A DNA stretch of 64,000 nucleotides from Escherichia coli (GTDB lineage: Bacteria > Pseudomonadota > Gammaproteobacteria > Enterobacterales > Enterobacteriaceae). Shown here piece by piece: positions 31,385 to 35,690 of the stretch (positions are counted from its first letter, which is position 1; each line of letters begins with the position of its first letter). The notes beneath the pieces were generated by a model, which was given only the letters and a program-made list of their open reading frames with translations, was not told the DNA's origin and searched no databases. The stretch is taken from the NCBI RefSeq assembly GCF_003334765.1, contig NZ_QOWT01000001.1; one strand, 5' to 3'. Both the position numbers and the translations under genes were made by a program.

Positions 31385-31414
31385 AACCCGATGATCTGCG
31401 CATCGGGTTTTTTA
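31385..31414 (+). terminator. Rho-independent terminator after cheW
   Basis: AACCCGATG-ATCTGCG-CATCGGGTT followed by TTTTT. Confidence 0.75.
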
Positions 31415-31444
31415 TTTCAATTTCGCGGCGGGTGGCATCAGCAA

Positions 31445-31471
31445 TAAAGTTTCCCCCCTCCTTGCCGATAA
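31445..31471 (+). promoter_or_regulatory. sigma-28 promoter of the tar-tap-cheRBYZ operon
   Basis: TAAAGTTT-N11-GCCGATAA, a perfect consensus. Confidence 0.75.
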
Positions 31472-31502
31472 CGAGATCAACTTGTTTTCAGGAAGGTGCC
31501 TT

Positions 31503-33164
31503 ATGATTAACCGTATCCGCGTAGTCACGCTGTTGGTAATGGTGCTGGGGGTATTCGCACTGTTACAGCTTATTTCCGGCAGTCTGTTTTTTTCTTCCCT
31601 TCACCATAGCCAGAAGAGCTTTGTGGTTTCCAATCAATTACGGGAACAGCAGGGCGAGCTGACGTCAACCTGGGATTTAATGCTGCAAACGCGCATTAAC
31701 CTGAGTCGTTCAGCGGTACGGATGATGATGGATTCCTCCAATCAACAAAGTAACGCCAAAGTTGAATTGCTCGATAGCGCCAGGAAAACATTGGCGCAGG
31801 CAGCGACGCATTATAAAAAATTCAAAAGCATGGCACCGTTACCTGAAATGGTCGCTACCAGTCGTAATATTGATGAAAAATATAAAAACTATTACACAGC
31901 GTTAACTGAACTGATTGATTATCTAGATTATGGCAATACTGGAGCTTATTTCGCTCAGCCAACCCAGGGAATGCAAAATGCAATGGGCGAAGCGTTTGCT
32001 CAGTACGCCCTCAGCAGTGAAAAACTGTATCGCGATATCGTCACTGACAACGCAGATGATTACCGATTTGCCCAGTGGCAACTGGCGGTTATCGCGCTGG
32101 TGGTGGTATTGATTCTGCTGGTGGCGTGGTACGGCATTCGCCGTATGTTGCTTACTCCGCTGGCAAAAATTATTGCTCACATTCGCGAAATCGCCGGTGG
32201 TAACCTGGCGAATACCCTGACCATTGACGGGCGCAGTGAAATGGGCGACCTGGCGCAGAGCGTTTCACATATGCAACGCTCTTTGACTGACACCGTCACT
32301 CATGTCCGCGAAGGTTCAGATGCCATCTATGCCGGTACCCGTGAAATTGCGGCGGGCAACACCGATCTTTCCTCCCGTACTGAACAGCAGGCATCCGCGC
32401 TGGAAGAAACTGCCGCCAGCATGGAGCAGCTCACCGCGACAGTGAAGCAAAACGCCGATAACGCCCGCCAGGCCTCGCAACTGGCGCAAAGTGCCTCCGA
32501 CACCGCCCAGCACGGCGGCAAAGTGGTGGATGGCGTAGTGAAAACGATGCATGAGATCGCCGATAGTTCGAAGAAAATTGCCGACATTATCAGCGTTATC
32601 GACGGTATTGCCTTCCAGACTAATATCCTCGCGCTGAATGCCGCGGTTGAAGCCGCGCGTGCGGGTGAACAGGGCCGTGGTTTTGCCGTGGTGGCGGGTG
32701 AAGTGCGTAATCTTGCCAGTCGCAGCGCCCAGGCGGCAAAAGAGATCAAAGCCCTCATTGAAGACTCCGTCTCACGCGTTGATACCGGTTCGGTGCTGGT
32801 CGAAAGCGCCGGGGAAACAATGAACAATATCGTCAATGCTGTCACTCGCGTGACTGACATTATGGGCGAGATTGCATCGGCATCGGATGAACAGAGCCGT
32901 GGCATCGATCAAGTCGCATTGGCGGTTTCGGAAATGGATCGCGTCACGCAACAGAACGCATCGCTGGTGCAGGAATCAGCTGCCGCCGCCGCTGCGCTGG
33001 AAGAACAGGCGAGTCGTTTAACGCAAGCGGTTTCCGCGTTCCGTCTGGCAGCCAGCCCACTCACCAATAAACCGCAAACACCATCCCGTCCTGCCAGTGA
33101 GCAACCACCGGCACAGCCACGACTGCGAATTGCTGAACAAGATCCAAACTGGGAAACATTTTGA
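31503..33164 (+). CDS. tar: Methyl-accepting chemotaxis protein II (aspartate/maltose receptor)
   Basis: 553 aa from [17 protein letters not shown]; HAMP and MCP signalling domain; C-terminal NWETF pentapeptide. Confidence 0.95.
32310..33000 (+). repeat. Tandem paralog repeat, copy 1 (tar signalling domain); copy 2 at ~34011-34701 in tap
   Basis: Long near-identical stretches between tar and tap (e.g. ATTATCAGCGTTATCGACGG, GCAAAAGAGATCAAAG); antisense ORFs 32327-32905 and 34241-34561 share the same peptide run. Confidence 0.7.
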
Positions 33165-33209
33165 CGAGTATTTACTAACGCGGTCATTGCCGCCTGATGG
33201 GGAGCGTTG

Positions 33210-34811
33210 ATGTTTAATCGTATTCGAATTTCGACCACGCTGTTTTTAATTTTGATTCTCTGCGGGATCTTGCAGATTGGCAGTAACGGCATGTCTTTTT
33301 GGGCATTTCGCGACGATTTGCAACGACTGAATCAGGTCGAGCAGAGCAATCAGCAACGTGCGGCATTAGCGCAAACTCGGGCGGTAATGTTACAGGCCAG
33401 TACCGCGCTGAACAAAGCGGGCACTCTGACGGCACTTAGCTATCCGGCGGATGACATTAAAACGTTGATGACGACGGCGCGCGCCAGTCTGACGCAATCC
33501 ACCACGCTGTTTAAAAGTTTTATGGCGATGACTGCGGGCAACGAGCACGTCAGGGGATTGCAAAAAGAGACGGAGAAAAGTTTTGCCCGCTGGCACAACG
33601 ATCTCGAACATCAGGCGACCTGGCTTGAAAGTAATCAACTTTCGGATTTCCTCACTGCGCCGGTGCAGGGATCACAGAATGCGTTTGACGTTAACTTTGA
33701 GGCCTGGCAGCTGGAGATCAACCATGTGCTGGAAGCCGCCAGTGCGCAAAGCCAGCGTAACTATCAGATTTCGGCACTGGTGTTTATCAGCATGATTATT
33801 GTTGCGGCGATCTACATCAGCAGTGCGCTGTGGTGGACGCGCAAGATGATTGTTCAACCACTGGCCATTATCGGTAGCCATTTTGACAGCATTGCTGCGG
33901 GTAATCTGGCGCGTCCGATTGCGGTATATGGTCGTAATGAGATCACCGCCATTTTTGCCAGTCTGAAGACCATGCAGCAGGCTTTGCGTGGGACGGTAAG
34001 TGATGTGCGTAAGGGAAGCCAGGAGATGCACATTGGTATCGCGGAGATTGTCGCAGGCAATAACGATCTCTCAAGTCGTACCGAACAGCAGGCGGCATCG
34101 CTGGCACAAACGGCCGCCAGTATGGAGCAATTAACCGCCACGGTAGGGCAAAACGCCGATAACGCACGACAGGCGTCGGAACTGGCAAAAAATGCCGCGA
34201 CAACGGCGCAGGCGGGCGGTGTTCAGGTCAGTACCATGACTCACACCATGCAGGAGATCGCCACCAGCTCGCAAAAAATTGGCGACATTATCAGCGTTAT
34301 CGACGGAATTGCTTTCCAGACCAATATTCTGGCCCTGAATGCGGCAGTGGAAGCGGCTCGCGCCGGAGAGCAGGGGCGTGGTTTTGCGGTAGTGGCAGGT
34401 GAAGTGCGCAATCTTGCCAGCCGTAGCGCGCAGGCAGCAAAAGAGATCAAAGGGCTGATCGAAGAGTCAGTCAATCGTGTCCAGCAGGGTTCGAAACTGG
34501 TGAATAACGCCGCCGCGACCATGATCGATATTGTCAGTTCGGTGACCCGCGTGAACGACATTATGGGAGAAATTGCCTCTGCGTCGGAAGAACAACAGCG
34601 GGGGATTGAGCAGGTTGCACAGGCTGTCAGCCAGATGGATCAGGTGACTCAGCAGAACGCCTCGCTGGTAGAAGAAGCGGCGGTGGCAACGGAACAACTG
34701 GCGAATCAGGCCGACCATCTTTCGTCGCGTGTGGCGGTATTTACCCTTGAAGAACATGAAGTAGCACGACATGAGTCGGTGCAGTTACAAATTGCGCCAG
34801 TGGTATCCTGA
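33210..34811 (+). CDS. tap: Methyl-accepting chemotaxis protein IV (dipeptide/pyrimidine receptor)
   Basis: 533 aa from MFNRIRISTTLFLILILCG; MCP signalling domain; lacks NWETF. Confidence 0.93.
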   Translation: MFNRIRISTTLFLILILCGILQIGSNGMSFWAFRDDLQRLNQVEQSNQQRAALAQTRAVMLQASTALNKAGTLTALSYPADDIKTLMTTARASLTQSTTLFKSFMAMTAGNEHVRGLQKETEKSFARWHNDLEHQATWLESNQLSDFLTAPVQGSQNAFDVNFEAWQLEINHVLEAASAQSQRNYQISALVFISMIIVAAIYISSALWWTRKMIVQPLAIIGSHFDSIAAGNLARPIAVYGRNEITAIFASLKTMQQALRGTVSDVRKGSQEMHIGIAEIVAGNNDLSSRTEQQAASLAQTAASMEQLTATVGQNADNARQASELAKNAATTAQAGGVQVSTMTHTMQEIATSSQKIGDIISVIDGIAFQTNILALNAAVEAARAGEQGRGFAVVAGEVRNLASRSAQAAKEIKGLIEESVNRVQQGSKLVNNAAATMIDIVSSVTRVNDIMGEIASASEEQQRGIEQVAQAVSQMDQVTQQNASLVEEAAVATEQLANQADHLSSRVAVFTLEEHEVARHESVQLQIAPVVS

Positions 34812-34829
34812 AGTGATTGAGAAGGCGCT

Positions 34830-35690
34830 ATGACTTCATCTCTGCCCTGTGGGCAAACGTCTTTATTGTTACAGATGACCGAGCGCCTGGCGCTTTCCGA
34901 CGCGCATTTTCGGCGGATAAGTCAATTGATCTATCAACGAGCCGGGATCGTTCTGGCTGACCATAAACGCGACATGGTTTACAACCGACTGGTTCGTCGT
35001 TTGCGTTCGCTGGGACTGACGGATTTCGGTCATTATCTGAACTTGCTGGAATCTAATCAGCACAGCGGTGAGTGGCAGGCGTTTATCAATTCGCTGACCA
35101 CGAATCTGACGGCATTTTTCCGTGAGGCACATCATTTCCCTCTGCTCGCGGATCACGCACGTCGCCGTTCTGGCGAGTATCGCGTATGGAGCGCGGCGGC
35201 TTCGACCGGCGAAGAGCCGTACAGCATTGCGATGACGCTGGCTGACACATTGGGCACCGCGCCCGGACGCTGGAAAGTGTTTGCCAGTGATATCGACACC
35301 GAAGTGCTGGAAAAAGCCAGAAGCGGTATCTATCGCCATGAAGAGTTGAAAAACCTGACGCCGCAGCAACTGCAACGGTATTTCATGCGAGGGACGGGGC
35401 CGCATGAAGGGCTGGTACGCGTGCGTCAGGAGCTGGCGAACTATGTTGATTTTGCCCCGCTGAATCTACTGGCGAAACAGTACACCGTGCCGGGGCCGTT
35501 TGATGCGATCTTCTGTCGTAACGTCATGATCTACTTCGATCAAACTACCCAGCAGGAGATTTTGCGCCGCTTTGTTCCGCTCCTTAAACCCGACGGATTG
35601 CTGTTTGCGGGTCACTCTGAAAACTTTAGCCACCTTGAGCGCCGCTTCACGCTGCGTGGTCAGACGGTGTATGCGCTAAGTAAGGATTAA
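34830..35690 (+). CDS. cheR: Chemotaxis protein methyltransferase CheR
   Basis: 286 aa; SAM-dependent MTase motif [17 protein letters not shown]. Confidence 0.95.

Follow-up and report, generated by a model that had tools for sequence, protein, structure and literature searches.

A signalling-domain repeat shared by tar and tap as a probable source of rare in-frame chemoreceptor fusions in Escherichia coli

Does the similarity between two neighbouring chemoreceptor genes, tar and tap, act as a substrate for recombination in natural Escherichia coli, and if so, what does it produce? The first-pass annotation had proposed that the signalling-domain regions of the two genes are direct repeats about 1.7 kb apart with long near-identical stretches, and that unequal recombination between them would create tar-tap hybrid receptors or delete tap. 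The window, the whole stretch of 64,000 nucleotides that was analysed, is K-12-like E. coli and 99.9% identical to an MG1655 record, with which its genes were compared through the RefSeq annotation. Within it, tar and tap follow one another head to tail on the plus strand, separated by a 45-nt spacer, in the FliA-driven tar-tap-cheRBYZ operon, and the promoter sequence is the one given as the FliA site of that operon (PMC4183435). The arrangement is intact and is the standard one of K-12, with no recombination product present.

31445..31472, plus strand: FliA (sigma-28) class 3 promoter of the tar-tap-cheRBYZ (meche) operon, matching the site TAAAGTTTCCCCCCTCCTTGCCGATAAC exactly
31503..33164, plus strand: tar, methyl-accepting chemotaxis protein II, 553 aa, ending in NWETF (ORF, translation and RefSeq)
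33147..33161, plus strand: codons for the Tar C-terminal NWETF pentapeptide (AACTGGGAAACATTT = NWETF)
33210..34811, plus strand: tap, methyl-accepting chemotaxis protein IV, 533 aa (ORF list, translation and RefSeq annotation)

As judged from their sequences, neither gene's identity is in doubt. Tar scores 1200 bits against the NCBIfam equivalog NF011622 (cutoff 900; residues 1-553 of 553 covered), and the 99.9-100%-identical gene is named tar in RefSeq; Tap scores 1181.9 bits against NF007309 (cutoff 903; residues 1-533 of 533 covered). The translation of tar ends in ...DPNWETF, which fits the high-abundance receptor class, the NWETF pentapeptide being the docking site for CheR and CheB. A search for NWETF in Tap gave no match, and its C-terminus (...LQIAPVVS) fits the low-abundance class.

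To describe the repeat in DNA, a protein-guided codon alignment was combined with an ungapped, in-register comparison of the two genes. The copies and the exact runs that they share are as follows.

32310..33000, plus strand: repeat copy 1, in tar; it encodes the signalling domain's methylation helices and hairpin tip
34011..34701, plus strand: repeat copy 2, the matching stretch of tap
32582..32605, plus strand: 24-nt run (CGACATTATCAGCGTTATCGACGG), tar copy, the longest, Tar codons 360-368; crossover interval of hybrid A
34283..34306, plus strand: 24-nt run, tap copy
32447..32464, plus strand: 18-nt run (GCAAAACGCCGATAACGC), tar copy, Tar codons 315-321; crossover interval of hybrid B
34148..34165, plus strand: 18-nt run, tap copy
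32736..32751, plus strand: 16-nt run (GCAAAAGAGATCAAAG), tar copy, the third exact run (tap copy at 34437-34452)

At a shift of 1,701 nt (3 x 567) the two copies align gap-free with 70.9% identity, which bears out the proposed direct repeat; identity at codon positions 1, 2 and 3 is 82, 84 and 46.5%, and the alignment of the genes stays gap-free from Tar residue ~118 to 521. A repeat search returned two direct, in-register blocks at a spacing of 1701 (32544-32843 / 34245-34544, 77%; 32334-32518 / 34035-34219, 74%), and BLASTN of tar against tap gave 74.4% identity over 634 nt (E = 1.7e-112), far beyond chance. The "long near-identical stretches" hold at the level of protein, where Tar codons ~360-419 share 97% amino-acid identity with Tap in the protein-guided alignment, but the phrase overstates the DNA, in which the longest exact run is 24 nt. 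Only three exact runs of at least 12 nt exist (24, 18 and 16 nt), all in register, and the first two are the longest exact direct repeats between tar and tap at any offset; identity peaks at 90% over 60 nt and at 85% over 100 nt. For comparison, codon-shuffled versions of tap (n = 200) had a longest exact match with tar of 11.2 nt on average and 15 nt at most. The first-pass annotation had set its bar for abandoning the idea at an identity below ~70% with no identical run longer than 20 nt, and in pairwise alignment the repeat narrowly escapes this condition.

The repeat fits the geometry of in-frame exchange, its copies being adjacent, gap-free and in the same orientation: with an offset divisible by three and no indels, any exchange in register deletes 1,701 bp and keeps the reading frame. 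For RecA/RecBCD recombination, a minimal processing segment of 23-27 bp has been quoted (PMC12074656), and the uninterrupted identity here amounts to one run at the lower bound of that range, the next being 18 and 16 nt. By its sequence the substrate is a poor one, the two copies being homeologous (71%) and sharing just one run that reaches 23 nt; fusion is a rare event.

To look for products of such exchange, a synthetic fusion sequence was searched against 5,426 complete E. coli genomes. The exact 1,701-bp in-frame tar'-'tap fusion was found in three of them (~0.06%), each matching the query as a single piece with 100% coverage, so that unequal recombination does give hybrids in nature as proposed, with loss of 1,701 bp. 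Each locus carries one in-frame 1,608-nt CDS between cheW and cheR, with tar sequence at its 5' end and tap sequence at its 3' end. In hybrid A (ET474 and PEC389; protein WP_096259879.1) the switch lies inside the 24-nt run, bounded by informative site 32581 on the tar side and 32606 on the tap side, while in hybrid B (ETEC4088; protein WP_098723133.1) it lies inside the 18-nt run, bounded by sites 32446 and 32465. Across the three genomes, 801-802 of 803 informative sites agree with a clean switch from tar to tap. Under a uniform spread of breakpoints across 721 nt, the chance that both events fall in the 24- and 18-nt runs is P ~0.004; no natural crossover junction was found in the 16-nt run (32736-32751 / 34437-34452).

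The isolates came from frog and pig faeces, the hybrid A genomes from China and South Korea and the hybrid B genome from Belgium. Over 5.1 kb, ET474 and PEC389 show no difference and, on this sequence identity, probably descend from one event, so that only two events are certainly independent; hybrid A occurs on two flank haplotypes that differ at 8 sites in 5.1 kb. Beyond the complete genomes, records of the two hybrid proteins span 71 and 28 contigs (NCBI, ENA and Logan; 140 and 58 index blocks), and in every case the gene sits between cheW and cheR. The segment 33030-34010 is absent from 44 of the complete genomes, and matches to the locus are at the paralogue level only in 46 records (~42 genomes); the count of fusions among complete genomes is nearly exhaustive. 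In two chromosomes the unique segment 33030-34010 maps to two places, which an IS insertion would explain as well as a duplication would.

We also searched for the reciprocal product, which a triplication of the order tar / hybrid / tap would contain. No tap'-'tar junction at the 24-nt run was found, no genome exceeding 90-95% identity, and the top matches were ordinary tap at 87-90%; the search was suited to the 24-nt run, and a duplication joined at the 18-nt run is not reliably detectable by it.

Taken together, these findings favour the reading, to which we give a probability of roughly 0.9, that tar and tap are old tandem paralogues whose constrained signalling domains form an in-register repeat yielding in-frame natural fusions. 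The least improbable of the alternatives, though we consider it very unlikely, is plain paralogy too diverged to recombine and of no consequence, in which case the interpretation of the first-pass annotation would be wrong. The 71% identity, the single run at the 23-27 bp threshold and the 99.9% of genomes that lack a fusion would all suit it, as would the frequent loss of tap through what, in one genome mapped, is a different, tap-internal deletion. Against it, natural in-register fusions exist, they are seen in many independent assemblies, and their junctions fall exactly in the longest runs of identity; unless these assemblies are wrong, the fusions refute it.

A somewhat less credible alternative is that recent duplication or ongoing gene conversion (concerted evolution) actively homogenises the tandem copies. 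The adjacency and direct orientation of tar and tap would favour such a process, and third-position identity reaches 0.60-0.63 in two 30-codon windows against ~0.3 elsewhere; overall, however, third positions are only 46.5% identical. Moreover, when tsr and trg sequences from an MG1655 record were brought in, tar proved closer to the unlinked tsr than to tap by every measure over the same 231 codons: 77.2% against 70.7% nucleotide identity, an identical-codon fraction of 0.53 against 0.51, and a longest exact run of 28 against 24 nt. Because tar is nearer to tsr (77%) than to its own neighbour, the similarity of tar and tap appears, from these sequences, to stem from protein-level conservation of the MCP signalling domain and not from recent duplication or gene conversion. 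Conversion patches point the same way: a tar gene with a tap patch between the 24- and 18-nt runs occurs in 0 of 5,426 genomes (best match 94.6%, the wild-type level), and a tap gene with a full-length tar patch likewise in 0 of 5,426. Concerted evolution was set aside on the tsr and trg comparison. The search for a patched tap also returned six records at 95-99% identity, none with full coverage, for which hybrid genomes and short-deletion alleles could plausibly be the source.

The fusions might instead be assembly artefacts, produced by the collapse of similar segments. Repeats are a classic cause of misassembly, and the fusions are known here from assemblies. Set against this, the exact sequence shared is just 18-24 nt, and the k-mers that assemblers use for their final graphs normally exceed that length; the same junction recurs in genomes from China and South Korea and another in the genome from Belgium; the exact hybrid proteins recur on 71 and 28 contigs; and the number of genomes without 33030-34010 fits true deletions. 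We regard an artefact as more improbable still.

Each copy of the repeat also carries an antisense open reading frame, unannotated in RefSeq, which we regard as a by-product and not a gene.

32327..32905, minus strand: antisense ORF in tar, 192 aa
34241..34561, minus strand: antisense ORF in tap, 106 aa

In register, 84 of 107 residues of the two peptides are identical (79%), including an identical run of 31 residues. The two ORFs stand in the same frame relation to their genes, with third codon positions coinciding with the third positions of the sense strand; because sense positions 1 and 2 are conserved, the antisense peptide is conserved automatically, and the suggestion that these shared peptide runs have the same origin as the repeat itself is upheld. 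That they are real overlapping proteins, whose length (192 and 106 aa), 79% identity and 31-residue run would be independent evidence of function, is the least probable of the alternatives, since sense conservation alone conserves the antisense peptide in that frame, the two ORFs differ in length and ends, and RefSeq records have no minus-strand annotation here; on this frame geometry we do not count them as genes.

Most natural loss of tap goes another way than tar-tap fusion, by a route mapped in one genome. Most of tap is gone, with a short remnant kept, in ~1,060 of the 5,426 genomes (~20%). In the genome that was mapped, a 1,374-bp deletion lies wholly within tap between two GAATCAGG octamers (33329 and 34703), accompanied by a 1-nt frameshift. 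Since tar is untouched there, the route is not the tar-tap repeat, and an unrelated deletion at 8 nt of microhomology in that genome implies that receptors are not lost chiefly because paralogues lie close together. For uropathogenic E. coli lacking tap (and trg), PMC3559539 cites Lane et al. (J Bacteriol 188:5618, 2006; PMC1540019). That case is alike in being a natural loss of Tap at the same locus; in contrast to the tar-tap repeat, the ~20% tap loss takes, in the mapped genome, the form of the 1,374-bp tap-internal deletion.

The homology of tar and tap and their ability to form hybrids are already known, having been described as early as the 1980s. Slocum, Halden and Parkinson reportedly recovered spontaneous tar-tap deletion fusions ('Tasp' hybrid transducers) in laboratory K-12 strains in 1987, in which the 5' part of tar is said to be joined in frame to the 3' part of tap through recombination in the homologous 3' halves. 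Those fusions resemble the present ones in genes, orientation and kind of product; they differ in coming from laboratory K-12, whereas the present ones come from natural isolates and are mapped at the nucleotide level to the 24- and 18-nt runs. Weerasuriya, Schneider and Manson are said to have engineered Tar-Tap and Tap-Tar chimeras in 1998 with joints in the linker just after TM2, and reportedly put Tap's poor clockwise signalling down to its cytoplasmic domain, the missing NWETF tail being examined as well. These chimeras likewise couple the sensing module of Tar to the signalling module of Tap, but the natural hybrids join much deeper than TM2, at Tar residues ~361-368 or 316-321. Lepore-type fusion genes, such as the human delta-beta globin of Hb Lepore, arise by unequal crossing-over between tandem paralogues. 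They are alike in concept, giving an in-frame hybrid with the N-terminal part of one gene and the C-terminal part of the other and loss of the intervening DNA; tar-tap differs in being bacterial and ~71% identical with crossovers confined to 18-24-nt islands of identity, and in that the reciprocal ('anti-Lepore') duplication was not found in the search at the 24-nt run. Both receptor studies are cited as functional chimeras of related chemoreceptors (Slocum, Halden, Parkinson, J Bacteriol 169:2938, 1987, PMC212330; Weerasuriya, Schneider, Manson, J Bacteriol 180:914, 1998, PMC106972). A literature search for isolates with naturally occurring tar-tap fusions yielded no more than a paper on operon mapping, and a full-text search for 'Tasp' nothing relevant.

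How might the natural fusions arise? On the favoured reading, tar and tap are old tandem paralogues in one operon whose periplasmic halves have diverged beyond DNA recognition, while purifying selection, with its signature in the 82, 84 and 46.5% identity of the codon positions and the 97% amino-acid identity of the core, holds the cytoplasmic signalling domains near-constant as protein and so leaves a gap-free homeologous repeat of ~700 nt at 71%. Exchange could proceed through RecA/RecBCD at the borderline 24-nt run or through RecA-independent slippage or annealing between sister strands, probably restrained by mismatch repair; because neither a reciprocal junction at the 24-nt run nor a full-length conversion patch was found, the pathway cannot be read from the sequence. 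The stretch deleted comprises the 3' end of tar, the 45-nt spacer and the 5' end of tap. Upstream of the joint, the product has the Tar sensing domain, transmembrane helices, HAMP and first methylation helix; downstream of it, Tap contributes the hairpin tip, the second methylation helix and a tail without NWETF. The observed hybrids keep the Tar HAMP and three first-helix methylation sites, and NWETF is absent from every tar'-'tap hybrid as it is from Tap. We infer that such a receptor would keep aspartate and maltose sensing, lose dipeptide taxis and depend for adaptation on neighbouring NWETF-bearing receptors, e.g. Tsr.

For the window itself, with its standard K-12 arrangement, these findings have little consequence; beyond it, their bearing is modest. 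The hybrid scores 1049 bits against the Tar profile and clears the cutoff of 900, so annotation pipelines label it plain 'tar', and surveys of gene content therefore miss both the fusions and the loss of tap that comes with them. In the hybrid lineages, the che operon is otherwise intact. It is a tentative and rather unlikely proposition that the hybrids are more than rare accidents, being recurrent hotspot products, of two or possibly three independent origins at defined islands of identity, selectively kept in some animal-associated E. coli lineages. If it were true, these lineages would have gained a high-copy receptor for aspartate and maltose whose output is of the Tap type and lacks NWETF, and would have dropped dipeptide taxis, so that the receptor repertoire would have been rewired naturally in a single step. 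Natural Tar-Tap hybrids do circulate in E. coli, and they illustrate the limits that a few tens of identical bases place on homeologous recombination.

The window is E. coli and K-12-like; MG1655, WG5 and other laboratory strains match it at 99.9-100% identity across 31403-34911, and every one of the 5,426 complete E. coli genomes in the collection has a match to this interval. Gene order in the matching records is cheA, cheW, tar, tap, cheR, cheB, cheY, cheZ, then flhB, flhA and flhE, and both receptors, matched end to end, score above the cutoffs of their NCBIfam equivalogs (Tar, 1200 bits with a cutoff of 900; Tap, 1182 bits with a cutoff of 903). The tar-tap arrangement is ordinary and intact, with the following features (plus-strand coordinates):

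31445-31472, FliA promoter, as published for tar-tap-cheRBYZ
31503-33164, tar, 553 aa, C-terminus NWETF (ORF and translation)
33210-34811, tap, 533 aa, C-terminus IAPVVS (ORF and translation)
34830, start of cheR (ORF list)
32582/34283, longest exact tar/tap run, 24 nt
32447/34148, second exact run, 18 nt
32736/34437, third exact run, 16 nt

The first-pass annotation had described the signalling-domain segments 32310-33000 (tar) and 34011-34701 (tap) as direct repeats with long near-identical stretches. The repeat is real: ungapped identity is 70.9%, BLASTN of tar against tap gives 74.4% over 634 nt (E = 1.7e-112), and a repeat search found two in-register blocks at a spacing of 1701 with 77% and 74% identity. 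In a protein-guided alignment, Tar residues ~118 to 521 pair with Tap free of gaps, at an offset of exactly 567 codons. At any offset, exact matches of 12 nt or more number only three, all in register; when tap was codon-shuffled 200 times, its longest exact match to tar averaged 11.2 nt and was at most 15 nt. Near-identical is nevertheless a generous description of the DNA, given that the best 60-nt window reaches 90% identity and the longest exact run 24 nt; in the pairwise alignment, identity and run length lie narrowly above the ~70% and 20 nt that the annotation had set as a floor.

Identity between tar and tap at codon positions 1, 2 and 3 is 82%, 84% and 46.5%, and amino-acid identity rises to 97% in the hairpin-tip core, a pattern characteristic of an old protein domain under purifying selection and not of a recent duplication. 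Concerted evolution left no sign: when tsr and trg were taken from an MG1655 record, the four receptors aligned and pairs compared over the same 231 codons, the tandem tar-tap pair (70.7% nucleotide identity, identical-codon fraction at conserved residues 0.51, longest exact run 24 nt) was no closer than the unlinked tar-tsr pair (77.2%, 0.53 and 28 nt). The sole special trait of the tar-tap pair is its geometry, the genes being adjacent, on one strand and offset in frame. As the 28-nt run exceeds every tar-tap run, tar and tsr form, in principle, a homeologous pair at least as suited to large rearrangements; in the tsr copy compared with tar at 14867-16522 of L009, a locus from another genome, the signalling domain is 77% identical, versus 71% for tap.

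The antisense ORFs at 32327-32905 and 34241-34561, said to share peptide runs owing to the same repeat, are both present, and their in-register translations have 84 of 107 residues in common, including a 31-residue identical run. Antisense third positions coincide with sense third positions in both, so conservation of sense positions 1 and 2 conserves the antisense peptide. No minus-strand gene is annotated at either ORF in the matching records; we rejected them as genes on the geometry of their frame and regard them as by-products.

Unequal recombination had also been proposed to yield tar-tap hybrids or remove tap, and such products exist in nature. A synthetic fusion (tar to 32605, then tap from 34307 into cheR) was searched against the 5,426 complete genomes and matched as one unbroken piece in three: ET474 (frog faeces, China), PEC389 (pig faeces, South Korea) and ETEC4088 (pig faeces, Belgium). 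Each carries one 1,608-nt CDS, annotated 'tar', between cheW and cheR, and no tap. Every site where window tar and tap differ was then scored: in ET474 and PEC389 the sequence follows tar to 32581 and tap from 32606, which places the exchange within the 24-nt run (hybrid A), and in ETEC4088 it follows tar to 32446 and tap from 32465, which places the exchange within the 18-nt run (hybrid B). The fusion model fits 801-802 of 803 informative sites, and the two independent junctions fall in the two longest identity islands (P ~0.004 for breakpoints spread evenly along the 721-nt alignable segment).

The segment that every in-register fusion must delete, 33030-34010, is missing from 44 of the 5,426 genomes, and a whole-locus query gave paralogue-level matches only in 46 records (four or five plasmids; ~42 genomes); three fusions, ~0.06% of genomes, is therefore close to the full count. 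The ~41-46 complete genomes without any tar-tap locus match only at the tsr, trg or aer paralogues, which points to larger flagellar region II deletions. Across NCBI, ENA and Logan, the exact hybrid A protein (WP_096259879.1) occurs in 71 contigs and hybrid B (WP_098723133.1) in 28; index blocks carrying them (140 and 58, respectively) always place the hybrid between cheW and cheR with the remaining che operon intact. The same 5.1 kb sequence occurs in ET474, PEC389 and one draft genome, and a second, K-12-like draft genome with hybrid A has eight flank differences, so hybrid A may have had two origins, or later recombination may have altered its flanks. In the hybrid A draft GCA_907172595.1 (locus L013, 4627-5486), a 1-nt indel breaks cheR into two ORFs, which is a sequencing error or else a further lesion of the adaptation machinery. 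A search for the reciprocal tap'-'tar junction at the 24-nt run found none, and conversion patches between the 24- and 18-nt runs were absent from tar and, at full length, from tap.

A passage of PMC12074656 puts the minimal efficient processing segment of RecA/RecBCD at 23-27 bp, which the 24-nt run just meets; the 18-nt run falls short. Two pathways are possible for the fusion: unequal sister exchange that depends on RecA, and sister-strand slippage that does not (Lovett et al., 1993, as cited in that passage). The 71% identity around the runs would leave heteroduplex DNA open to mismatch repair, in agreement with the rarity of the fusion.

In hybrid A, Tar 1 to ~360-368 is joined to Tap; the protein first departs from Tar at residue 417 and differs from it at 43 positions within residues 1-521. 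The switch to Tap in hybrid B comes at Tar 315-321, and the differences number 61. Both retain the Tar ligand-binding domain, transmembrane helices, HAMP domain and three first-methylation-helix sites (motifs 294, 300, 307), and carry the Tap hairpin tip, second-helix site and short tail, with consequent loss of NWETF. NWETF is the CheR/CheB tether, and Tap is reported to be a low-abundance, poorly signalling receptor (Weerasuriya et al., 1998); on these grounds the hybrids would be expected to keep aspartate and maltose sensing, lose dipeptide taxis and rely on neighbouring Tsr for adaptation.

Other lesions also affect these genes. Of the 5,426 genomes, ~1,060 (~20%) keep no more of the 33030-34010 query than its first 311-314 nt, and their coverage of the full locus query is just 61%. 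In the one mapped, urine isolate MS10860 (locus L001, 3308-3459), tar is intact and tap has a 1,374-bp in-frame deletion whose ends are the only two GAATCAGG octamers in tap, at 33329 and 34703 (span 33329-34710), and one nucleotide is also missing from a T run. This agrees with Lane et al. (2006), who, according to a citing passage in PMC3559539, reported Tap loss in uropathogenic strains. Short-remnant tap loss, as mapped in MS10860, does not involve the tar-tap repeat, and accounts for far more losses of Tap than recombination between tar and tap.

At least five genomes (LD39-1, 30COLEC, NCTC9066, LR-33, FDAARGOS_1250) apparently have a tap 81 bp (27 codons, in frame) shorter; mapped in LD39-1 only (locus L007, 3087-3092), the deletion corresponds to window ~34095-34175, has CTGGCA microhomology and removes part of the Tap first methylation helix. 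Strain 673 (locus L002, 2760-2778) has a 222-bp (74-codon) in-frame tar deletion between the imperfect repeats GGTGAACAGGGCCGTGG and GATGAACAGAGCCGTGG (32664-32680 and 32886-32902), which encode the GEQGRG and DEQSRG motifs of the two signalling-hairpin arms; it would remove the hairpin tip, and locus length and annotation suggest the same deletion in PI24 and strain 472 (search matches H45, H51). In LR-45 (locus L008, 1474-3693), flhE comes directly after a 2,220-nt CDS annotated 'tar', with tap, cheRBYZ and flhB missing; the tar tail (to window ~33131) appears to be joined to a 3' portion of flhA, and the strain is presumably non-motile. In strain A23 (NZ_CP028752.1; search matches H1, H134), IS1A is inserted in tar; apart from it, the locus matches the window at 100% identity.

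The homology of the tar and tap 3' halves has been in the chemotaxis literature since the 1980s, and Slocum, Halden and Parkinson reportedly obtained hybrid transducers from spontaneous tar-tap deletions in 1987. The first-pass observation is thus correct and its interpretation supported, and the finding is already known. No report mapping natural tar-tap hybrids was found in the searchable literature, whose coverage omits most subscription-journal papers, and placing their junctions at nucleotide level in the two longest identity islands is a small addition. Hybrid A reaches 1049 bits with the Tar equivalog model, whose cutoff is 900, and so receives the plain PGAP name 'tar'; name-based gene-content surveys record 'tap absent' and overlook the fusion.
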